The notes under the pieces: generated by a model
Seen by the model: the letters and a program-made list of their open reading frames with translations, nothing else
Told to the model about the DNA's origin: nothing
The model's database searches: none
Shown: piece by piece, positions 2,573-36,796 of the stretch
Numbering within the stretch: the stretch's first letter is position 1
Layout: each line of letters starts with the position of its first letter
Translations under genes and position numbers: made by a program
Source of the DNA: a virus
Taxonomy: Duplodnaviria > Caudoviricetes
Reading direction: 5' to 3' (one strand)
DNA length: 51,268 bases
Virus record (IMG/VR): IMGVR_UViG_3300011116_001156
Location: 1 to 51,268 of that record

Positions 2573-2968
2573 ATGAAATTTAGCAAGGTTGCTCTTCTCT
2601 CCGCAATCTGGGTCGCGTGTCTGCCCAAACTGGCCGCCGCGACTCCCCCAGCCCAGGCGCTGTTTGGCACGATCAATGGGCAGTCGGTGGCAATCTATGC
2701 CAGCAACTCTAGCTTCGGCGTGTGCTTCCAGGGCGAGGCTCAGCAGCCCGGTCAGCCGTGGACCTCGTTCATGACGTTTGACTGCGGGATTGATCAGGGC
2801 AAGCTGGATGCTCACGGTGGCGCGGCAGGGTATATTACCTACATGCTGCCGGACATTAATGCGCGAATCAGTGGTTACTTTGGAGGGGGAAGTGGAATTG
2901 AAGCTCAATTGGATGAGGCGTTTAACGCCAGCTTTAAGTTTGTTGGTGCTAGCTTGCAGCCTAAGTAA
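2573..2968 (+). CDS. Secreted hypothetical protein
   Basis: MKFSKVALLSAIWVACLPKLAAA signal-like peptide; one Cys pair in the mature part. Confidence 0.55.
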   Translation: MKFSKVALLSAIWVACLPKLAAATPPAQALFGTINGQSVAIYASNSSFGVCFQGEAQQPGQPWTSFMTFDCGIDQGKLDAHGGAAGYITYMLPDINARISGYFGGGSGIEAQLDEAFNASFKFVGASLQPK

Positions 2969-3116: not shown

Positions 3117-3380
3117 ATGACTGGTAAAAAAGGTGTATCCCTGAGTGTTGGCCGAGGCGAGAAATTGTCAGTCAGCAAAGGCGCGGGATTGACAGCTAAA
3201 GGTCGCGAGAAATACAATCGCGCGACTGGGTCTAATCTAAAAGCTCCCGCGCCAAGCCCTAAAACAAGTGCTGATAAAGGCCGAAAGGCTAGTTTCTGCG
3301 CTCGTATGAAGGGAGTTGTTGATCATGCTAGCGGCCCTGCCGAGCGCGCCAAGGCATCGCTCAAACGGTGGAAATGTTAG
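3117..3380 (+). CDS. Small basic conserved phage protein (DUF6321-like)
   Basis: GLTAKGR..YN..TGSNLKAP...RKASFCARM...SLKRWKC pattern. Confidence 0.65.
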   Translation: MTGKKGVSLSVGRGEKLSVSKGAGLTAKGREKYNRATGSNLKAPAPSPKTSADKGRKASFCARMKGVVDHASGPAERAKASLKRWKC

Positions 3381-4269: not shown

Positions 4270-4482
4270 ATGGCTAGACTCAACGATACCACTGCCCTCT
4301 CTCGCCAGGGCATTAGGAAGGCTGGATTTGAAACTGCTGATGAGCCGTTTCATGTCCTACCAGCGGCGGCTGCATCCGCTGATGCTGCTGTCTGCGGCCC
4401 TCAGCCGGGTAAGTTCCGTCGCGAAACTGGGGCAGGGAATGAGTCCCTGGCTGAGGCGACAAAGTGCATGGAGTATTGCTAG
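4270..4482 (+). CDS. Hypothetical protein
   Basis: AGGAGG RBS; tight operon packing. Confidence 0.6.
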   Translation: MARLNDTTALSRQGIRKAGFETADEPFHVLPAAAASADAAVCGPQPGKFRRETGAGNESLAEATKCMEYC

Positions 4483-5031
4483 ATGTTGACCCTTCGCGAG
4501 ACCCTCGGCCTTCCCCCGCATAAGGGTACTCTGCGTGGGTCGCGCTCCCAGAGTTGGCGTGGCATGGCGCTGGCTCTGGGAGTTCTTTTCGGCCTAGGCG
4601 CTAGCGCCCCGGCGAGTGCTCAGCCAGCGAATGGATTGTTCTGGCAGTGTGTGGTCCCGAGTACTGCTAGCCCGAGTGGCGGATACTGCCCGGTGAGCAT
4701 GGGGTATCCGTTGCCAGTGGGGCAGGAAATTCGCGGCTGGCTGCCGGTGGTAGGTACTCAGCGAGGACTGAGCATTGCCACCTCGACTGCCCTGACTATC
4801 CCGACTGGTGCGACCATTGCGATGGTACAGGCTCAGGGAACAGGGGCCACCGTTGGCGGCCAGTGCGCGTTTTTCCAGGACGATGGTACTGCCCCGACGG
4901 CGACAGCGGGGCAGATTCTGGTCCCGAATCAGACGATTGTACTCAGCGGAACTTCGCTAACAGCATTCCGAGTGATCGCTGCCTCCGGTGTTGGTGCGAG
5001 CTGCACCCTGACCGCTAGCTACTACAAATAG
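4483..5031 (+). CDS. Beta-rich virion-type protein with signal peptide
   Basis: Basic N-region, hydrophobic core and ASA-Q cleavage site; DDGTAPTAT motif; two Cys pairs. Confidence 0.6.
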   Translation: MLTLRETLGLPPHKGTLRGSRSQSWRGMALALGVLFGLGASAPASAQPANGLFWQCVVPSTASPSGGYCPVSMGYPLPVGQEIRGWLPVVGTQRGLSIATSTALTIPTGATIAMVQAQGTGATVGGQCAFFQDDGTAPTATAGQILVPNQTIVLSGTSLTAFRVIAASGVGASCTLTASYYK

Positions 5032-5043
5032 CCTGGTGCTGGT

Positions 5044-5307
5044 ATGACTGCCCTGCTCCCGAACGCGCAACAGCAATTCTGTGATGCCAATGGAAAGCCG
5101 CTGGCGGGAGGGTATGTTTACTTCTACGAGGTCGGGACGACTACTCCAAAGGCGACGTATCAGGACCTCGCGCTCAGTGTCGCGAATGCAAATCCCGTGA
5201 TCCTGGACTCAGCTGGTCGCGCTACCATCTGGGGAAGCGGGAACTACCGGCAGATGCTGTACGATGTCTTCAACAATCTGATCTGGGATGGGACAACCTC
5301 AGGATGA
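5044..5307 (+). CDS. Stand-alone head-binding (virion anchor) domain of podovirus tailspike/fibre type
   Basis: QQF.DANGKPLAGG.VYFY..GTTTPK.TY...N.NPVILDSAGRA.IWGSG.YRQ, usually the N-terminus of long fibres. Confidence 0.75.
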   Translation: MTALLPNAQQQFCDANGKPLAGGYVYFYEVGTTTPKATYQDLALSVANANPVILDSAGRATIWGSGNYRQMLYDVFNNLIWDGTTSG

Positions 5308-6749
5308 AGCCATTTCATTTCCCAGTCCTGGGAGCAGCGCTGCTCCTTGCGACCAGCGCTCTTGCTCAACCGCAGACCCAGTGTGTCAGCAATGCCATCG
5401 CTGGCGGGACTGTTGACAATATCACCATCCCGCTGCAGCCCTGCGGACTCAGTACAAACATTCTGATCCTAACTGCTGCTGGCGCGAATACAATCGCGCA
5501 GCCGACGTTGCAGATGGCGGGGTATCCGAGGCAGAATATTTATACCTCGACTGGAACTGCCCCTGGGATCGGGATTATTCCTGGTGCTGGAGCCACCATT
5601 CTGCTGACTAGCACTGGGACTGCCTGGAAGATTGTCTCTGGCAATGCGAGTACGACATTCTCTGGTGTCCTAACCGTCCCGAATGGCGGGACTGGTGTTG
5701 CAACCATCGGTTCCAATGGGCTGATGGTCGGGCAGGGTACGGGCGCAGTCACGACTGTCACTGCCGGGACGACTGGGCAGATTCTGAATGGGAACACTGG
5801 CAGCCCGCCCAGTTGGGTTACAGCTGGTGCAACTGGCACGTTCCTTGGCGGAAACACTGGCGCCGCCCCGAGCTTTAAGACAATTAGCAGCAACTTGGTT
5901 TCGAGTATCTCCTTCGGAAGCACTGGGCTGACGCCGAACAGTGCGACGACAGGGGCGGTTACTGTTGCAGGCACGCTGGGAGTCGCGAATGGCGGGACGG
6001 GACTGACGACGGGGTACATCAATGGCGCGCTGCCGATAGGCAATGGTACTGGGTTTACCCTGGCAAGGTTGACCGCTGGGGTGAATACTATCATCACCAA
6101 TGGCGCTGGCAGCATCACCATCGACACGACGGGGAGCACGACTGCCTGCGGTGGCGGGAGTGTTGCGACACAGGTGCTGACTGATAATGGATCGAATGGC
6201 TGTACTTCCAATCCAGGGCTGAAGTTTACTTCCAATACGCTGAGCATCGCTGGCAGCACGTCCGGGACGCTGGGATTGAAGGCGGCTGCGATTGCTGGGA
6301 GCAATACCCTGACCCTTCCCGCTGGCACGACGGATTTCTCCGCGACCGGCGGGACGAGTCAGGTGGTCAAGCAGACGACCTCTGGTGGCGCTCTGACAGT
6401 TGGGCAGCTGGCCTGCTCCGATCTCTCCAACGCGAGTTCTGGTTGTTCTGGTGCAGCTTCTCTGACAGAGGGCGGAGCGAAGACAACTAGCTTCAACGCG
6501 GCGAGCAATACTACCTACTGTATTGACACAGTGACTGGGGTGGCCACTCTGACTGCGACTCTCCCTGCCAGTCCGAGCAATAACGATACTATCGAGTTTG
6601 TCTCCTGCGCAAACTACGCGACTTACAACTTCATTGTTGCCAGGAATGGGAACAATCTACAGGGACTGGCGCAGGACATGACTGTCAATACGAATAATGC
6701 GAGTTTCACTGTTAAGTTCTACACTACCTACGGCTGGAGGATGAAATAA
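5304..6749 (+). CDS. Tail-fibre-like protein with Sec signal peptide
   Basis: V.NGGTG repeats and C-terminal TLPASPS..D...RNG..QG...GW fibre domain; N-terminal MKPFHFPVLGAALLLATSALA-Q; 8 Cys in neighbouring pairs. Confidence 0.7.
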   Translation: MKPFHFPVLGAALLLATSALAQPQTQCVSNAIAGGTVDNITIPLQPCGLSTNILILTAAGANTIAQPTLQMAGYPRQNIYTSTGTAPGIGIIPGAGATILLTSTGTAWKIVSGNASTTFSGVLTVPNGGTGVATIGSNGLMVGQGTGAVTTVTAGTTGQILNGNTGSPPSWVTAGATGTFLGGNTGAAPSFKTISSNLVSSISFGSTGLTPNSATTGAVTVAGTLGVANGGTGLTTGYINGALPIGNGTGFTLARLTAGVNTIITNGAGSITIDTTGSTTACGGGSVATQVLTDNGSNGCTSNPGLKFTSNTLSIAGSTSGTLGLKAAAIAGSNTLTLPAGTTDFSATGGTSQVVKQTTSGGALTVGQLACSDLSNASSGCSGAASLTEGGAKTTSFNAASNTTYCIDTVTGVATLTATLPASPSNNDTIEFVSCANYATYNFIVARNGNNLQGLAQDMTVNTNNASFTVKFYTTYGWRMK

Positions 6750-7984
6750 TGTCTAAGCTCTTCCGAGGAACTCTCGCGCTAGTTCTCTGCTCATTGCTGA
6801 GCCTTGGCTCCGCCGATGCGAGCACGTTCCAACAGTTCTTCCTCAATGGGAACCAGTCCAACCTGCTGGAATGGCGTGCAGCGAGTGCGACTTGGACAGT
6901 CCCGGCAGGGATTACTTCTGTCCGTGTTGGTGTCTGCGGACCTGGAGGCGGTGGTGCTGGGAGCAATACTAGCACTGACCGCGTTGTCGGTGGCGGAGGT
7001 GGCGGTTACGCTGAGGCACTGAAGGCTGTCATTCCTGGTGAGACGATCACTATCACGCTTGGCGCTGGCGGAGCGGGCGGTGCAAATGCTAGCGGCTCGG
7101 CTGGCAGTAATGCGACTGTTGTTGCTGGAACTTCTGCCTGGACGTTGACGGGGACTGCTGGGGCTGGTGGCACCAAGGGCGCTGGGACAATCACTGGTGC
7201 TGCTGGTGGCATTCCGACCGGTGGAGACATCAACTCAACTGGTGGTGCTTCTGGGACTGTAAGTGCTAACTCTGGAGCGTCCGGCGGCGGTGCGCCTGGG
7301 CATCCAGCAGGTACGGGCGCGGCATCGGGGTTGATCTCTGCTGCCGGTCCCGCCGCAACGGGTGGTGCGGGGCTTCGCGGAGCATCTGGCGCGATTACAG
7401 CCGTGACGACCTCTGCCGCGACCGGTGGAGGCGGTGCCGGGTTTGCGAGTGGTGCAGTTAGTTCGGGGACAAGCACTTACAGTTCGGGCGGCGGAACGAT
7501 TACCGCGAGTCCCGCAAACGGTAACAATACGATTGGTGGCGGTGGCTTCACCGGAATGCAAGTTAGCGGTTCCACACTCGCTGCTTCTTCGACTGGGAAT
7601 GCTGCGTTTTACGTTGGGGCGCAGCCACTAATTTACGCCGCGCTTACATCTCTTGGGTCCGGCGCAAATGGCGGTGTGAATCCAGGAGAACCGGGCGGCG
7701 GGGGGTCTGGAAATACGGCGAGCACTTCGGCGGCAGGTGGCGGTGGGCTTGGCGCAGGTAGCGGCGGATCGGCCAATGCTGGCGGCAACGCAACGGGGGG
7801 TCCTGGCTCGGCTTATGGCAGCGTCAAGTTGCCTGGGCCTTTCGGCGGCGGCGGCGGGGCGGCTTCGTCAAGCGGCACAGCAGTTGGCGGCCCAGGTGGA
7901 CTCTGTGCAGGCGGTGGCGGCGCTGTGGGGACTACAGGGACCGGCGGCGACGGAGGACCTAGCTATTCGTGGGTTAAGTATTAG
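6749..7984 (+). CDS. Glycine-rich adhesin/fibre-tip protein with signal peptide
   Basis: TWTVPAGITSVRV...GGGG glycine-rich domain; N-terminal MSKLFRGTLALVLCSLLSLGSADA. Confidence 0.7.
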   Translation: MSKLFRGTLALVLCSLLSLGSADASTFQQFFLNGNQSNLLEWRAASATWTVPAGITSVRVGVCGPGGGGAGSNTSTDRVVGGGGGGYAEALKAVIPGETITITLGAGGAGGANASGSAGSNATVVAGTSAWTLTGTAGAGGTKGAGTITGAAGGIPTGGDINSTGGASGTVSANSGASGGGAPGHPAGTGAASGLISAAGPAATGGAGLRGASGAITAVTTSAATGGGGAGFASGAVSSGTSTYSSGGGTITASPANGNNTIGGGGFTGMQVSGSTLAASSTGNAAFYVGAQPLIYAALTSLGSGANGGVNPGEPGGGGSGNTASTSAAGGGGLGAGSGGSANAGGNATGGPGSAYGSVKLPGPFGGGGGAASSSGTAVGGPGGLCAGGGGAVGTTGTGGDGGPSYSWVKY

Positions 7985-8010
7985 GGAATAACCATCCACT
8001 CCTCCCACCT

Positions 8011-9465
8011 TTGCAAAGCAAACTCTCCATGTCTACCCAGCTTCAATTTCCCGAACATGCCCAGGTACTTTTCAAGCCCAAGCGCTTTAAGGTGCTGTGG
8101 GGCGGGAGAGGTGCGGGGAGAAGCTGGAATATTGCTCGCGCATTGCTGGTGATGGGGACACAGCGGTCAATCAGAGTTCTCTGCTGCCGCGAGTTGCAAA
8201 AGTCGATCAGTGAGTCAGTGCATAAGGTGCTCTCGGATCAGATCGAGTTCCTCGGGCTCAGCTCATGTTACAGAATTGAAGTTGCCAAGATTTATGGCAT
8301 CGGCCCGGCGCTGGGAACGGTCTTCTCCTTCGAGGGGATTAAGAATAACACCACTGCGATCAAGTCGTATGAGGGTATTGACTATTGCTGGGTTGAGGAA
8401 GCGAATAAGGTCAGCAAGGCGAGCTGGGCCATTCTGATCCCGACAGTCAGAAAGGAGACTCCCCTCGACTGGCGCGAACGGGGAATGGAGAAGCCAGACT
8501 TTCAATCTGAGATCTGGATCAGCTTTAACCCAGAGCTTGAGACTGACTACACCTACACTCGTTTTGTCAAGGACTCGCGGCTGAAGACTGTCCAGATGCA
8601 AGGCTCCAATGGTCTGCCCTGGACGTACAAGGAGTCCCCGGACAGCTTCGTCGTGAAGATGACCTACGCGGATAATCCCTGGTTCCCAGAAGTGCTCCGG
8701 ACAGAGATGCTGACGGAGAAAGAACGCGATTATGACAATTACCTAAACGTCTGGGAAGGGCATACCATTCTCCAGCTGGAGGGGGCGGTCTTTAAGAAGG
8801 AGCTGCGGAAGGCTCGGGAAGAGGATCGGATTTGTACTGTCCCCTGGGAGCGGGAGGTTCCGGTGGATACCTTCTGGGACTTGGGACGGAGAGACTCCAC
8901 TGGTATCTGGTTCGGCCAATTTGTCAGCTTTCAGTTCCGCGTGCTGGAGTACTTCGAGGACCAGGGCGAGGACATTACCCATTATATCAAAGCCTTGCAG
9001 AACAAGGAATATACTCTTGGCCACCACTTCCTCCCCCATGACGCGAAGCATAAGAAGCTGGTGTACAAACACTCAATCGAGCAGATTGTGAAAAACGCCT
9101 TCGGGAGTGACAATGTGACAGTTCTGCCCAGGGTCCCGGCGAAGTTCGACTCTATCAACGCTGCGCGTATGTTCTTCCCGAAGTGTTACTTTGATGAGGT
9201 TGGCTGCGCGGATGGGCTGGCGCATCTTAATCGGTACAGGTTTAAGGTTGTAGATAGTCAGTTCAGTAAGGAACCCCACCATGATGATGAGGGGCATTCG
9301 GACTGCGCTGACGCGTTTATGGAAATGGCCAGGGCCGCACAAATGCCCCGTGCTAAGCGAGGGCTCCTCGCCCGGATCGGACTCCCTGCGAGCGCTCGTC
9401 AGGGCAAAAATCGTATTACTGGTACTGCTGGCGTTCGCGCTGACGGTACTGGTTGGATGAGGTAG
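8011..9465 (+). CDS. terL: Terminase large subunit (PBSX-like)
   Basis: GGRGAGRS Walker A, WVEEA Walker B, SFNP, nuclease motifs WDLG, LPHDA, HSDCADAF; start may be ATG 8029. Confidence 0.95.
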   Translation: MQSKLSMSTQLQFPEHAQVLFKPKRFKVLWGGRGAGRSWNIARALLVMGTQRSIRVLCCRELQKSISESVHKVLSDQIEFLGLSSCYRIEVAKIYGIGPALGTVFSFEGIKNNTTAIKSYEGIDYCWVEEANKVSKASWAILIPTVRKETPLDWRERGMEKPDFQSEIWISFNPELETDYTYTRFVKDSRLKTVQMQGSNGLPWTYKESPDSFVVKMTYADNPWFPEVLRTEMLTEKERDYDNYLNVWEGHTILQLEGAVFKKELRKAREEDRICTVPWEREVPVDTFWDLGRRDSTGIWFGQFVSFQFRVLEYFEDQGEDITHYIKALQNKEYTLGHHFLPHDAKHKKLVYKHSIEQIVKNAFGSDNVTVLPRVPAKFDSINAARMFFPKCYFDEVGCADGLAHLNRYRFKVVDSQFSKEPHHDDEGHSDCADAFMEMARAAQMPRAKRGLLARIGLPASARQGKNRITGTAGVRADGTGWMR

Positions 9466-31782: not shown

Positions 31783-33336
31783 CTATCCGAGCATCGGGCG
31801 AGAGAATCCAGTAAGTCTAGTGCGAGTGTCAGGGCGGCCAAGTTTCCATTTGAGCAGTCCCTCGGGATTTGGCCGGGACTGCTTGCGAGTCCCGCGATCT
31901 TGCCGAGGAGGCTCAACTGCGACTGCCGGTCCCCAGTTCCAGCCAACTTTCGCTTCTCCTGGAACGACATACTTCCGTCCTTTGTGCTCGAGTTCCACTC
32001 GGATGAGCTGGAGGGCCTCGGAGATAATGTCGTCCTCGTTCTCAGTCTCGCGATACTGGAACGTGATTGAGTCATACGTTTGAGCGAGCAACTGGACGTG
32101 AGGCATTTTCTTCCAGACTCTCCAAAGGCCCAAGTTCATTCGGTCGGCAGTGGTACTCTGCGGGAGAAAGGCAATCGCCTCGCGAAGAGTCGTATCATCG
32201 CCCGGTCGCCCGAAGAAATGCCGCTCACGTCCAAACGGTGTAACCAGCTTATTAGTCGTTTGTAGTTGCTCGGCAATCCATTGCCAGTACCGGCTGTGTG
32301 CCGGGTACGCACAGGACTCTCCCTTGCAATAGCGTTGCTGGAACTCCTCAGCCACTTTGGGGGGAATTTTGAGACTCCGAGCCATGGTCCAGGCAGTGCC
32401 CATGTAGTTACTCAGATGCCCGCCACGTTTGGACATATCGCGATAACTGAACTCGCGATAGAACTGCCCGTCAGCGATCTCTCGGTCTTTCTTTGCATCG
32501 CCAGTCCAGCGAAGCTCGGGCCAGATGAGTCGGCAGTTGGTCGTGTGCAAATCGCCGCCTTCGCAGGCGTTCAGGAACTTCCAGTCGTTGAACAGCACTC
32601 CTTCAAACCATCCGACATCTCTGGCCTCTACCTGCTCCAAATCTATGACGCAGAGCTTGTATCCAGCATCTGCGACAAAAACGTAACGCAGCCACTGATT
32701 AATGTTCTGCGCATTGCCGCCTGTTCCGAAGGCGTTGGAAGAGCTGCTGGGGCGTCCAGTTTCAGTTCCAGCAATGTTATAGCTTGTCCTATATCGTCCA
32801 TCAGGGTCAATTTCAGTCTCAAAGACTTCGCGCTGCTTGGAGAGATCGCGAATGGTGAGGATGCAGGAAATGAATGGTCGGGCATAGAGATAGCGCTCCT
32901 CGAGCTTTTCTAGGGTTTCACGATTTGTGGAGAGCTTGCGTTCCCCCTTTTGGTTGATCCAGATTTCTGGCAGCTGGAGCGCGCGGTAGAAGAAGTCTTT
33001 GAGCTGTGCGGGAGAGCGAGGGTTGAGTCCTTTGCCCCAGACTGCCTGGGCATACTCGTTGAGGATGGAGTTGAGTTGGTCGATCCGGGCTCCAAGCTCC
33101 CGTGAAGCCACCTGGCGACCAAGCTGGTCCACAGCGAATCCACGTTGCATTATCTCCAGATAAGGGCCTTGCAGGGCGCGCTCGAATGAGTAGACTGGGG
33201 GCGGCTGGTTGAACAGTCGGTTCAGCTCCGAATGGACCTCGAAGGTGACACAGGTGTCCAATCCGCAGTAGACCTGGTGCTGGACCTCAGCTGACAGTTG
33301 GTGAGGCAACAAACTCTCTGTCTGAATGTACGGCAT
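31783..33336 (-). CDS. polA: Family A DNA polymerase, ExoIII motif plus polymerase domain
   Basis: YCGLD (ExoIII), TETGR.SS, motif A DLEQVEAR, motif B R..SK..GH.SNY, motif C YDS. Confidence 0.92.
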   Translation of the reverse strand: MPYIQTESLLPHQLSAEVQHQVYCGLDTCVTFEVHSELNRLFNQPPPVYSFERALQGPYLEIMQRGFAVDQLGRQVASRELGARIDQLNSILNEYAQAVWGKGLNPRSPAQLKDFFYRALQLPEIWINQKGERKLSTNRETLEKLEERYLYARPFISCILTIRDLSKQREVFETEIDPDGRYRTSYNIAGTETGRPSSSSNAFGTGGNAQNINQWLRYVFVADAGYKLCVIDLEQVEARDVGWFEGVLFNDWKFLNACEGGDLHTTNCRLIWPELRWTGDAKKDREIADGQFYREFSYRDMSKRGGHLSNYMGTAWTMARSLKIPPKVAEEFQQRYCKGESCAYPAHSRYWQWIAEQLQTTNKLVTPFGRERHFFGRPGDDTTLREAIAFLPQSTTADRMNLGLWRVWKKMPHVQLLAQTYDSITFQYRETENEDDIISEALQLIRVELEHKGRKYVVPGEAKVGWNWGPAVAVEPPRQDRGTRKQSRPNPEGLLKWKLGRPDTRTRLTGFSRPMLG

Positions 33337-33749
33337 TATACTCTCTCGAATACTTGTTCCCAGAGATAATCAAACATAGCCTTGTCCTTGGTCAGAGGCA
33401 GGCGAACAGCTCCGTCCAAGGCGCGGAGTTCAATCGGCCTGCTCTCGCGGATCGCTTGCTCCAGCGCTGCCACCATTCCCTTACTCCACCCTCGGTCAGT
33501 ATAAAACACCTGCAGTTCTGCTACCTTCCTCCAGGCCAACCCGGCGGCAATTCCAAGTTCCCTCTCACTAGCCTTACTATCATCCAGGACTCCCGATTGA
33601 GTATACAGCAAATGGCTAGCAATCGGTGCCTCGCCGAGAGCGAGACAATCTGCAAGCGCGCGTCTGGCGTAGGTAACATTAGCCTCGATCTCCCCGGCGT
33701 ATGGACTTTCTACAATGACTCGGCGCATAGTGGCTCTCCCTTCACTCAT
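33336..33749 (-). CDS. Nucleoside 2-deoxyribosyltransferase-fold (DUF4406/DUF7768-like) protein
   Basis: VIVESPYAG..EAN..YAR...GEAPIASHLLY...G.S.GM. Confidence 0.6.
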   Translation of the reverse strand: MSEGRATMRRVIVESPYAGEIEANVTYARRALADCLALGEAPIASHLLYTQSGVLDDSKASERELGIAAGLAWRKVAELQVFYTDRGWSKGMVAALEQAIRESRPIELRALDGAVRLPLTKDKAMFDYLWEQVFERV

Positions 33750-35064
33750 CTTTCTTCTCCGTGTCAGCCTTCCGTTTGCGCATCAACTTCCAGGAACTTT
33801 CGTTGGTATAGATACTGCCGAGAAAGCCTAGTCCCTTCTGCATCTCAGGGAAGATAGAATGGTGCAGCAGCATGGTATCGGCCAAGTTCTGTCTTGGCTG
33901 GATAGCATACTTTGTCAGATACTGCAGATCGTACACCCCGTTCTGCCAAATCTTGGGGATGGGGGACTCAAGCAGCACTGCTGTCGCGTTCCATGCCCGA
34001 CGCTCGGACTGGTGATCGGGCCAGAAGTTATACCCAGGCTTGCTCCGGTCCCAGAACGGGATGACCATCGCTTCGGACGGGGACCTCGCGAAGCCGATGC
34101 AGGTGATCTGGCCCTGCGCTGTCTCGATGTCAGGTGCCAGCCATTCGATCTTGCCTTTGGCGAAGAGCTGGAGCGTCTGGTCTGTCCACGACTCCATCTC
34201 CTCCAATGTCGGGGAGACGAGAATGGAACGGCTGGGACGGCGAATGTCGGGAAAGTCTGCCTCCCTATTCGCCTTCATCAAGTCCGCGACTACAATCGGT
34301 CTCCAGGCCCATTGGCGGAGGACTCCGCTGGGATGGTAGGTTGGGAGGACTTTGAAAGGCTGAATTCGTTCGGAAGTCTGATTCTGAGCGTATCCCCGAT
34401 CTTGGCTGGCCATTGAGTTCCTAGGGCAAACTCCGAGTCCTTTGTCCAGCACAGTTCCATTTTCTGCTCCAGAATTGCTACCGACTGCCGAGTTAACTCC
34501 TGCAACCGTAACATCTCTGGGCTCAACTGAACTCGTGATGGCTCCTCGAATGGAGCCGATATTCGTGGCACGGAGAAGAGCCCAGCACGCAGTATTTCCA
34601 AGGGCAACAACCAGGTTTGGTCGCCAATGGTTAAGCTCAGTCCAGAGCCGGTCAAGCTCAGGGAGGTAATCTCCTCGTAGATATTTTCCTCTAGCAAGCG
34701 GCGGAAACGTGCCCGCGAGTTGCGAGACTTCGGTTTTTTTCTCACAGAGTTCCTCCAGTTTATTTCCAGGTGGTCGGAAGGCGAGCACGTTTGTCATCGC
34801 GATGCCTGCGGCAGCAAGCCATTCCTCGCGGGGGCGAATCCAGGCCGCGCCGTAGGTGTGCTGGGTGCAGATTTCAGCATGAAGCTCCGGGGCAATGCTG
34901 GGCATGGCCTCTCCAAGCATTCGGAACAGCTCTTTGCCGCTTTCTCCAGCGAATGGCTTGTGGCACTGGTCTTCTGTCTCGCCCCAGGCATCACCGACTA
35001 GGACAATTCGCGGAGTCTGGCTTCCTGCTGTGGCGGCAAATGGCGGGCGTGCTTGGTGGATCAT
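33742..35064 (-). CDS. UDG (family 4-like) fused to the ExoI/ExoII part of a 3'-5' exonuclease; N-terminal half of a split PolA
   Basis: IVLVGDAWG..E...PF.G.SG, TNV...RPP.N, LVVALGNTA, PTYHPS; then DIET, QNGVYDL, DTMLLHH; ATGA coupling at 35064. Confidence 0.88.
   Translation of the reverse strand: MIHQARPPFAATAGSQTPRIVLVGDAWGETEDQCHKPFAGESGKELFRMLGEAMPSIAPELHAEICTQHTYGAAWIRPREEWLAAAGIAMTNVLAFRPPGNKLEELCEKKTEVSQLAGTFPPLARGKYLRGDYLPELDRLWTELNHWRPNLVVALGNTACWALLRATNIGSIRGAITSSVEPRDVTVAGVNSAVGSNSGAENGTVLDKGLGVCPRNSMASQDRGYAQNQTSERIQPFKVLPTYHPSGVLRQWAWRPIVVADLMKANREADFPDIRRPSRSILVSPTLEEMESWTDQTLQLFAKGKIEWLAPDIETAQGQITCIGFARSPSEAMVIPFWDRSKPGYNFWPDHQSERRAWNATAVLLESPIPKIWQNGVYDLQYLTKYAIQPRQNLADTMLLHHSIFPEMQKGLGFLGSIYTNESSWKLMRKRKADTEKKDE
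34290..34745 (-). CDS. Candidate overprinted ORF containing a capsid N-terminus homologue
   Basis: GGAGG-6nt-GTG start; LTRQSV...DSEFA...AKIGDTLRIRLPNEF matches the coat's ITREAV...DESFA..AKIGDSLRIRLPSDF. Confidence 0.5.
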   Translation of the reverse strand: MRKKPKSRNSRARFRRLLEENIYEEITSLSLTGSGLSLTIGDQTWLLPLEILRAGLFSVPRISAPFEEPSRVQLSPEMLRLQELTRQSVAILEQKMELCWTKDSEFALGTQWPAKIGDTLRIRLPNEFSLSKSSQPTIPAESSANGPGDRL

Positions 35065-35339
35065 TTGTCTGCCAACAGCATATGCGCATTCGAGCTGATG
35101 ATGCTGAGCTTCAGCTCTTCCAATGAAGTGACTGCTGCGGTGTAGACAATCTTCCCCCTCGTCCCGTTCATGTAGTTCCCCTGAGAGTCCAACCCGATGT
35201 AGATAATCCCAGCCATACGGCCAGACCGGGCTTCTTCCAGCAAAGTCTCCAGCACGTCGATCACATCTGGCTGAACTGGCAGTCCTGCCGCAGTTGCTGT
35301 ATGCTCGAACAACGGGACAACCTTTGGTCCCTCGCTCAC
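35061..35339 (-). CDS. Hypothetical protein
   Basis: LETLLEEARSG.MAG pattern; overlapping start/stop coupling on both sides. Confidence 0.65.
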   Translation of the reverse strand: MSEGPKVVPLFEHTATAAGLPVQPDVIDVLETLLEEARSGRMAGIIYIGLDSQGNYMNGTRGKIVYTAAVTSLEELKLSIISSNAHMLLADK

Positions 35340-36796
35340 AGCCCGAGGCTCCCACCGGTTCTCTCCGCTGCCCGTTTCATTCGGGCCTGCTTCAGCGCGA
35401 GCCGCGCCGGGTCCACATATTGTTTATCGATCTCCAGCCCGAGGACATGACTCGCCCCGAGACTTTCAGCCGCACGTAGACTCGCACCGCTGCCGCAGGT
35501 GGGGTCCAGCATAATGGTGGTGTCATCCACCAGCATTTCCATGAAGTGCCGCAGCATAGGTTCGGGTTTCGTGCTCGGGTGGAGTTTTTTATCCGTCGGA
35601 GCGGAGTAGGCATCGCCTTTGACTCGGGCGATGTTGCGGTTGCCCCTGGATGCCAGCAGACAGGCCTCGTATACATGGCGGGCTCCTCGCTTCGGGTCTG
35701 ATGCAATCCCAGCATTGTCATTTTTGAACCAAATGAGCGGAAACTTCGCGAATTGGAGACTCGGGGCAAGTTCGTTGAAAAGGGCGACAGTGTTGCTGAT
35801 AATTCGGTAGTCGGCGGAGAGCCAGAACATCATGTGGGCAGAGACAGACATCACTCGGTCGAGGTTGGTGCAGAGAGACTTGATGAGTGTCTGGTACACA
35901 TCCACGCTGTCTTTGTAACCTAGCTTGCCGTTCTGGCCCAGTTCCGCTCCCCGGCCCTGTGGGCCAGAGAACAACTCGACCCCGTACGGAAAGTCACAAT
36001 GGATAAAGTTAAACTTCGGGCCAGAGTACTGGGGTGCCCAGTCGAGGAAGGAGATGTTGAGAATTGACTCTGGGTCAGGTTTGGGCGCAGGCTTGGACTG
36101 GCGAATGACTGGCGGTGCGCGAAGCTCTGGAGGCAGGGGCTCGCCTAGCTTTTTCAACTCCACCGCCCGCGCCTGATCAGCCTCGCTCAGCCCGGTGGCC
36201 ACCTGCTCGGGCTCGGTCTCTGCCGGGATGTCCTCGCCAGAGAGTAGGGCCTCCAGCTCCGCTCCCGCGTTCCGGTTCTCCCGGCGCTTGAGCATGTTGT
36301 ACGCTTCCCTCGCGGTGCCTGCACTTGCAACTCGCTCGTTCTCCATCTCTTTATAAACCGAGATGAGCAAACTGACATGGCTGAGTTCCATCGCGCACTG
36401 GGCAGCGGTCTCACCCATGGTCCAGTCAGGGTCGAGTTGGAGCTGCAGCTTATGCATTCCCCCCACCGCTCGGACAGTGTCTTGCCAGCAGAGGTCTTCC
36501 CGATGGGCGTTCTCGACGAACTCGATTAGTTGCTGTTCGACGGGGGTGAGCTGACTGATCTTCCTGGCGAGGATTTTCTCCCAGCCGAGATTTCGGCAGG
36601 CGGTCAATCGACGCTCTCCAGCCTGAAGGATAAAATCATCCGAGATCAGAATGGGACTCAACAGCCCGTGCTGTGCGATTGACTTCTGCAGCCAGGCTAC
36701 CTCCAGGGCTTCCTTCCCCGGCTCGCGCTGGCGCTGGTCGCGGAGGACTTTAATCTTGCTGATCTCGATGAGAGAGACTGACTGCTGTAGCTTCAT
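35336..36796 (-). CDS. ParB-like domain fused to an N4/N6 DNA methyltransferase
   Basis: GLLSPI...AGERRL...EN..R.DL; DFPY (motif IV variant), HPSTKP, LDPTCGSG. Confidence 0.85.
   Translation of the reverse strand: MKLQQSVSLIEISKIKVLRDQRQREPGKEALEVAWLQKSIAQHGLLSPILISDDFILQAGERRLTACRNLGWEKILARKISQLTPVEQQLIEFVENAHREDLCWQDTVRAVGGMHKLQLQLDPDWTMGETAAQCAMELSHVSLLISVYKEMENERVASAGTAREAYNMLKRRENRNAGAELEALLSGEDIPAETEPEQVATGLSEADQARAVELKKLGEPLPPELRAPPVIRQSKPAPKPDPESILNISFLDWAPQYSGPKFNFIHCDFPYGVELFSGPQGRGAELGQNGKLGYKDSVDVYQTLIKSLCTNLDRVMSVSAHMMFWLSADYRIISNTVALFNELAPSLQFAKFPLIWFKNDNAGIASDPKRGARHVYEACLLASRGNRNIARVKGDAYSAPTDKKLHPSTKPEPMLRHFMEMLVDDTTIMLDPTCGSGASLRAAESLGASHVLGLEIDKQYVDPARLALKQARMKRAAERTGGSLGL

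Follow-up and report, generated by a model that had tools for sequence, protein, structure and literature searches.

The stretch of DNA analysed here (the window) is the complete virus record IMGVR_UViG_3300011116_001156, which is 51,268 bases long and carries direct terminal repeats. At 4483-7984 it holds a block of four open reading frames (ORFs), in which a head-binding domain (HBD) of the kind found at the start of podovirus tailspikes is a gene of its own, situated among fibre-like proteins with predicted Sec leaders (i.e. N-terminal signal peptides). All four ORFs, starting at 4483, 5044, 5304 and 6749, lie at the positions given by the first-pass annotation, and their parts are as follows (aa, amino acids; a slash marks a predicted cleavage site).

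4483-5031, + strand: ORF4483, 182 aa; Arg-rich extension (residues 1-27), hydrophobic core, ASA/Q, mature part of ~136 aa
5044-5307, + strand: stand-alone tailspike head-binding domain (the 'anchor'), 87 aa, from PDB and PHROG matches
5304-5366, + strand: predicted signal peptide of ORF5304, residues 1-21, ALA/Q site, from the leader test and conservation
5367-5645, + strand: conserved N-domain of ORF5304, ~residues 22-114, a beta-sandwich with invariant Cys27/Cys47, from the family alignment and AlphaFold2 (AF2)
5646-6455, + strand: Gly/Thr-rich shaft of ORF5304, ~residues 115-384, from fibre similarity and a low-confidence monomer model
6456-6749, + strand: C-terminal module (C-module) of ORF5304, residues 385-481, from phmmer and Foldseek
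6749-7984, + strand: ORF6749, 411 aa; predicted leader 1-24 (ADA/S) and glycine-rich domain, from the leader test, Pfam and PHROG

The stand-alone anchor and its leader-bearing neighbours

The N-terminus of the anchor has no hydrophobic leader, and the protein matches PDB 7eeq, 'Tailspike head-binding domain' (E 4.8e-10 over residues 11-60), the tail-spike chains of 9vyg (the tail complex of cyanopodophage Pan3; E 3e-6) and phrog_26190 (E 2.4e-17). Usually an HBD opens a long spike or fibre protein, whereas here it is a complete 87-aa product, which can be aligned to residues 1-86 of a fused relative of 355 aa and is present as a single copy, there being no second HBD in the whole genome. That the HBD forms its own leader-less ORF, as had been claimed, is borne out by the 7eeq and 9vyg matches and by its homologues: a length-limited search of a large protein collection gave 35 further anchor clusters (69-87% identity). 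The length is precisely 87 aa in 34 of them and 88 aa in the other, and all share the C-terminal end ...WD-x-x-T-S/A-G/A.

The TGA stop of the anchor overlaps the ATG of ORF5304 (GGATGAAG), and this junction was compared in two runs (two further runs do not cover it). In one of these, which belongs to another study, a 2,756-base contig spans 4408-7163 and shows 0 differences and 0 gaps; a second assembly, the 51-kb contig of the probable source run, agrees base for base across the 5304 junction. No indel that fuses anchor and fibre near 5304 was seen, and such an artefact is excluded because the 87-aa length is conserved and the two assemblies agree. Judged by these sequences, the split anchor is real and conserved. 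Scans of IMG/VR, JGI metagenome and GTDB with the anchor reached identities of at most 58-61% and contained no stand-alone form; in IMG/VR, where the best 80 of 248 confirmed relatives were taken, 80 out of 80 loci have the HBD within a longer ORF, the complete ones being 157-1388 aa long and the shortest 157-160 aa.

Leaders were called with a heuristic of our own (a charged n-region, an uncharged hydrophobic core of ~10-15 residues and small residues at -3/-1) combined with conservation in homologues, rather than with SignalP. ORF5304 (MKPFHFPVLGAALLLATSALA/Q) and ORF6749 (MSKLFRGTLALVLCSLLSLGSADA/S) display the Sec/signal peptidase I pattern from their native starts, while ORF4483 does so only from Met28, or else with an unusually long n-region. 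The earlier claim of three Sec leaders thus stands for ORF5304 and ORF6749, where they are conserved, and for ORF4483 has to be narrowed to an internal start or an atypical leader. A crude form of the test flagged 17 of 65 crude window genes at any score, but at a score of at least 4.5 from the native start only five are left: the holin-like protein, the lipoprotein, ORF5304, ORF6749 and a gp7-like ejection protein. Among homologues the leaders are kept, by the same heuristic, in 148 of the 150 N-domain family representatives listed and, as read from the alignment, in 26 close homologues of ORF4483; as far as sequence can tell, the leaders are genuine and are conserved across large protein families.

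The N-domain defines the largest of these families. With residues 1-135 of ORF5304 as the query, at least 181 representative clusters were found at E<=1e-3 (82 at E<=1e-10), comprising proteins of 76-1801 aa in which the match starts, in nearly all clusters, within the first ~45 residues and directly behind the leader. The n-regions in this family are charged, the homologues of ORF5304 start with a Met of their own, and the +1 residue after the predicted cleavage site is Gln in 98 of the 148 leaders. A Pfam scan of 50 members placed three above the cut-offs (Beta_helix, pectate-lyase-like or Peptidase_S74) and two more below them, leaving 45 without a family; given these beta-helix, pectate-lyase and S74 C-termini, the N-domain family therefore consists of spike or fibre proteins. 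No match to the N-domain was obtained by tblastn against 50,697 deposited phage records, and among 9079 ORFs from 220 loci the combination of HBD and N-domain in one polypeptide gave one weak profile match (L002, E 6.5e-4).

The AF2 model of ORF5304 is confident for the N-domain (residues 25-113, predicted local distance difference test (pLDDT) ~90) and for the C-module (385-481), and poor in the Gly/Thr-rich middle, which is expected from a monomer model if the shaft is trimeric. For the N-domain there are structural leads only, in the Atlas, to the N-terminal regions of phage fibres (among them an 'SU10 adaptor' cluster; template modelling score by query 0.58-0.70). Further along, residues 306-390 are 60-80% identical to segments in many uncultured-phage fibre proteins. 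The C-module resembles CBA120 TSP4, both in sequence (7rfv/7rej/7rfo; phmmer E 7e-6, 27-31% identity) and in structure (residues 1-250/335 of TSP4; Foldseek E 2e-6, root-mean-square deviation 1.8, 96 columns), and in Foldseek it also matches T4 gp10, T4 gp9 and a baseplate protein of Klebsiella phage KP1. Folds of the TSP4-N/gp10 type join fibres to each other or to the baseplate, which is why, by analogy, ORF5304 would be a shaft with a docking end. A complex prediction with three copies each of the anchor and of ORF5304 residues 22-135 returned no answer (score 0.00) and is evidence neither way.

The cysteines point in the same direction as the leaders, i.e. out of the cytoplasm. A recount agrees with the first-pass annotation that the mature parts hold even numbers (four in ORF4483, at 56/69/128/174, eight in ORF5304 and two in ORF6749) and that ORF18032 in the tail module has none; those of ORF5304 form neighbouring pairs (27/47, 282/300, 371/381 and 406/435). 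The mature count is even in 127 of the 148 leader-bearing family members (binomial p 1e-19), compared to 26 of 39 leader-less HBD proteins, eight of these 26 having zero, in a control that is a rough motif pick. Cys27 and Cys47 are invariant across a 41-sequence alignment. Furthermore, the leader-less homologues of ORF4483 (P0241 and P0243) contain 0 Cys, versus at least four in the leader-bearing ones. The suggestion of oxidative folding outside the cytoplasm fits both this parity and this loss.

Counted from Met28, the leader of ORF4483 reads MALALGVLFGLGASAPASA/Q with predicted cleavage after residue 46; otherwise, a 27-aa Arg-rich extension precedes it. The 26 close homologues (172-188 aa) share its layout and four conserved Cys columns, with the motifs in the order open Arg-rich extension, core, P-A-x-A/Q, GLFWQC...YCPV and two more Cys. 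A Tat signal was ruled out, as a 33-sequence alignment has no conserved RR before the core; the conserved stretch at that place is QG-x-CGM. In the AF2 model, residues 82-182 (pLDDT ~90) contain a C-terminal jelly-roll, for which the fold matches are generic (jelly-roll/cupin, best Z 7.2, VIA), and Foldseek gave no match at E<=0.001. Five ORF4483-like proteins and five anchor clusters have longest contigs of equal size (7601, 56641, 18384, 20000 and 3993), and because of these shared sizes it is likely that the ORF4483-like gene and the anchor travel together as a cassette, the matching contig sizes being the only basis for gene order and the ATGA overlap in the 87-aa clusters.

Inside ORF4483, at 4544-4583 (+ strand), lies a perfect 17-bp hairpin followed by TTCTTTTC, with a folding energy of -44.4 kcal/mol (z -5.85, equalled by 0 of 200 shuffles) and with the ATG of Met28 (4564-4566) within its 6-nt loop. 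It could be a terminator, an attenuator or a structure that sets the choice of start, and it may explain the conserved QG-x-CGM of the homologues.

ORF6749 is the least defined of the three. Its glycine-rich domain scores 23.8 bits against Pfam Gly_rich_2 (PF21722), under the gathering cut-off of 24.3, and E 2e-11 against phrog_863. The homologues found are all weak; they carry PF21722, several of them are leader-bearing, and in one (P0253) there is a fusion with an HBD.

Relatives, genomic setting and comparable systems

Over all loci, 154 distinct HBD ORFs were collected, in which the HBD is N-terminal (123), lies directly behind a leader-like segment (21, including some near-duplicates) or follows another extension (10). 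In five out of five records checked (completeness 85, 100, 100, 85 and 95%) the leader-HBD protein is the only HBD match, and judging by the sequences these phages can hardly avoid exporting the particle-binding domain itself. One of the 21, a 706-aa prophage protein in a scaffold of Acidicapsa dinghuensis (L131, 7908-10028), has the leader …SLCCASAMA/Q directly before its HBD and 14 mature Cys; with a cultured acidobacterium as the host, this strain could be tractable for testing tailspike export.

Phages with a terL (large terminase) 44-55% identical to that of the window have three layouts beside this gene. A leader-less HBD protein of ~350 aa adjoins leader-bearing fibres in L004 and L002 (the 1432-aa protein of L004 has an N-domain of the ORF5304 type, 44% identity), in L006 and L019 a spike of 622-658 aa has the leader fused straight to its HBD, and the third layout is the split form, as in the window. 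Of four distinct IMG/VR contigs with an N-domain protein, the three examined (all but L217) have an HBD protein as its direct neighbour. The terL of L019 (3766-6231) and of L023 (9479-11944) is 821 aa long, with a ~340-aa insertion after the Walker region that starts CLGLGTKVLMFDGS... and looks like an intein.

By its gene content the phage of the window is a P22-like podovirus, with a portal (P22_portal, E 8.7e-140) and a P22 coat protein (E 3.2e-33) from Pfam, a gp10-like hub (phrog_578, E 2.6e-74) and a gp7-like ejection protein (ORF21447), the last with a Pfam score under the cut-off. On the + strand, the lysis genes are followed by a few small ORFs, the block at 4483-7984, terL, portal, coat and the tail genes up to ~27.4 kb; the replication genes are on the - strand. 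The genes flanking the block are the following.

1230-1604, + strand: M15 endolysin (Pfam/PHROGs), lysis cassette
1604-1897, + strand: holin-like membrane protein, lysis cassette
1894-2235, + strand: lipoprotein with LASC lipobox, lysis cassette
8011-9465, + strand: terL, large terminase (Pfam Terminase_3, E 4.6e-36), directly 3' of the block

With the tail genes at ~16-27 kb, apart from the block, these positions confirm the earlier description of a block that has lysis genes on its 5' side and terL on its 3' side, away from the tail genes. None of the deposited phages is close, the closest terL match being 45% identical, and the 4-kb block as DNA has no match among deposited phage records. 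The region 4400-8050 is also present in viral-metagenome runs, and 0.90 and 0.37 of its sampled words occur in runs of two studies labelled as single organism rather than metagenome, perhaps an indication of the host or of a culture carrying the phage. None of the runs listed for the stretch is an RNA run.

Within the tail module, ORF18032 (18032-18673, + strand, 213 aa) is similar over its C-terminal 127 residues to the C-terminal tip of another phage's HBD-bearing fibre (L078, 681 aa; 37% identity, E 2e-8), and from this resemblance it is possibly a leader-less receptor binder of the virion. ORF20998 matches PHROGs annotated as 'short tail fibre / adhesin'.

The closest known counterparts of the anchor are the homologous N-terminal HBDs of podovirus tailspikes (Pam1 7eeq and Pan3 9vyg, as well as those of the cultured phages PBR31, X14, P26218 and PAE2), and in 39 deposited records, including Xanthomonas PBR31, Shewanella X14 and Pseudanabaena Pam1, the HBD is found at the start of annotated tailspikes. 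The window phage shares with these systems a P22-type portal, coat and hub. In them, however, a long spike without a leader has the HBD as its first ~85 residues, whereas in the window the HBD makes up an entire protein and the spike-like parts are encoded by leader-bearing genes of their own. The C-module of ORF5304 has an assembly-domain fold in common with CBA120 TSP1-4 (TSP4-N) and T4 gp10, and in both cases an appendage comprises several separate proteins; the module of TSP4 is, however, N-terminal on a wholly cytoplasmic set of proteins, while that of ORF5304 is C-terminal on a protein predicted to be exported.

A parallel for the leaders is offered by the cultured Cellulophaga phage phi18:3 (NC_021794; Pachyviridae), whose gp085-gp087 are three consecutive proteins that start with a Sec-type leader and Gln at +1 and lie, as in the window, upstream of an endolysin (gp092) and terL (gp098). 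The record notes describe gp085 as virion structural, gp086 as structural and gp087 as tail protein, 'based on experimental MS/MS proteomics analysis' (MS/MS, tandem mass spectrometry), so that virion presence is annotated from MS/MS in phi18:3, whereas the window proteins are known from their genes alone. No sequence similarity to the window proteins was found, and no Cellulophaga record came up in the searches of phage records with the ORF5304 N-domain or with a leader-HBD protein.

Outside phages, the MAT fibre adhesins of Bdellovibrio bacteriovorus are described, in the available part of the source, as having a signal peptide, a conserved beta-rich N-domain, a phage-like trimeric fibre and variable tips, some with S74 (PMC10769870). 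This is the architecture of the ORF5304 family (leader, beta-rich N-domain, variable fibre), compared by layout only; the MAT fibres are encoded by the bacterium and sit on its own surface, while the window genes belong to a phage genome and lie beside an HBD. The cultured phage PBR31 has a leader-bearing, tail-hydrolase-like esterase (gp40), which its authors, in the available part of their text, read as a possible lysis aid. Among the papers listed in the literature searches, together with passages of PMC10769870, PMC12309495 and PMC10975493, there was no account of Sec export of tailed-phage fibres.

A proposed assembly route and its alternatives

In the textbook picture, tailed phages are assembled wholly in the cytoplasm. 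For the window phage the best explanation, although we put it at slightly less than an even chance, is that ORF4483, ORF5304 and ORF6749 are exported and make up the distal recognition apparatus, which is oxidatively folded in the periplasm and reaches the anchor-bearing particle only at lysis. The three proteins would be exported via Sec, their leaders would be cut at AxA/Q or AxA/S, and disulfides would form in the periplasm. There they might assemble into a branched fibre, with ORF5304 as the shaft and its gp10/TSP4-like C-module as the docking site for a partner. The 87-aa HBD would meanwhile remain cytoplasmic and fill the tailspike sites of the P22-like tail, and the exported fibres would reach the particle once holin and endolysin break the envelope, attaching either to it or to the anchor as an intermediary. 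As a prediction, export of the three has good support from the conservation of their leaders; actual export and cleavage, disulfide formation, contact between anchor and fibre and the timing of attachment are inferred.

Several points weigh against this proposal. Export, cleavage and docking are read from sequence features rather than from experiment or prediction, and the leader of ORF4483 is atypical, having either a 27-aa extension or no charged n-region, with a very stable hairpin at that place. The link between HBD and N-domain in L002, the sole one of its kind, is weak and partial and does not include the Cys part. The MS/MS results on phi18:3 are known from the record notes only and may reflect co-purifying secreted proteins. 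Finally, the block adjoins lysis genes instead of tail genes, the leader-bearing esterase of PBR31 is read by its authors (in the part of their text available) as a lysis helper, and the leader-less genes of the tail module (ORF18032 and ORF20998) could bind the receptor without the exported set.

These last observations, together with MAT fibres that work on the cell surface with the same architecture (available part of PMC10769870), also fit the main rival explanation, which we consider less likely, namely that the exported proteins are not virion parts at all and act on the envelope of the infected cell, with the HBD as a tail cap or remnant and the leader-less, fibre-like tail-module proteins finding the hosts. 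Such proteins could act as surface adhesins or as aids to lysis, or could mask or destroy receptors so that superinfection is prevented and progeny are not lost on debris. However, a bare HBD of exactly 87 aa that overlaps the start of ORF5304 is then left unexplained, as are the 21 of 154 HBD proteins behind leaders, each the sole HBD where its record was checked. In addition, ORF5304 ends in a structural docking module, which is neither an enzyme nor a lectin, and in phi18:3 the annotation assigns the leader-bearing proteins to the virion. It is also imaginable, but improbable, that the hydrophobic N-termini stay uncleaved, as membrane tethers or as transient assembly or chaperone segments, and that the fibres join at the inner face of the membrane. 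Cleavage is indeed only predicted, the leader of ORF4483 is unusual, and P22-type ejection proteins (the gp7-like ORF21447) have N-terminal hydrophobic segments too. Against this stand the conserved AxA site and Gln (at +1 in 98 of 148), the charged n-regions and the even Cys counts in 127 of 148, which fit an oxidising compartment; moreover, an N-in signal anchor would put the fibre outside the cytoplasm regardless.

There appears to be only a very slim chance that the anchor and ORF5304 are in truth joined into an ordinary tailspike, either because the split is an artefact of an indel in sequencing or because it is recoded by a programmed -1 frameshift. Upstream of the ATG of ORF5304 its frame stays open for 40 codons, and the HBD sits in a longer ORF in all of the 80 best IMG/VR loci out of 248, both of which would agree with a fusion, but the 34 further clusters of exactly 87 aa and the two assemblies that are identical across the junction, one of them from another study, do not. 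A fusion by frameshift is unlikely because homologues of ORF5304 have a Met of their own at the start, followed by a charged n-region; such a fusion would also put a conserved leader in the middle of a protein. The programmed variant was rejected on the same homologues and on the slippery heptamer, none being seen by eye before the stop.

Returning to export with docking at lysis, the relatives raise the question of how general such a route is. It is possible, though we hold this more loosely, that tailed phages have a widespread, undescribed route in which Sec-exported, disulfide-bonded and possibly periplasm-preassembled fibres are joined to particles built in the cytoplasm at lysis. This clade would then display the route most plainly, with a cytoplasmic 87-aa anchor separated from the exported fibres. 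Newly described here are a stand-alone anchor that is conserved, an N-domain family that is large and uniform, and a C-module of the docking type. If such periplasmic maturation holds for many uncultured phages, infectivity would be tied to the Sec, signal-peptidase and Dsb systems of the host, and lysis would be a step of assembly as well. Fibres could then carry disulfides, and possibly periplasmic modifications, that are unobtainable by cytoplasmic expression, which matters for fibre production and host-range prediction. The split anchor provides a direct handle, a small cytoplasmic protein with exported partners being open to in vitro binding tests.

Further features of the window

A fourth leader-bearing small protein is predicted at 2573-2968 (+ strand), between the lysis genes and a DUF6321 gene (3117-3380). 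Its leader reads MKFSKVALLSAIWVACLPKLAAA/TPP from Met20 of the ORF at 2516-2968, and the mature part has two Cys; no family was found for it in Pfam, PHROGs or NCBIfam, and NCBIfam gave no match for eight window ORFs. On the - strand, the DNA polymerase is seemingly contained in two ORFs (33742-35355 and 31783-33336), which both match phrog_17, and a nucleoside 2-deoxyribosyltransferase-like gene (33336-33749) lies between them.

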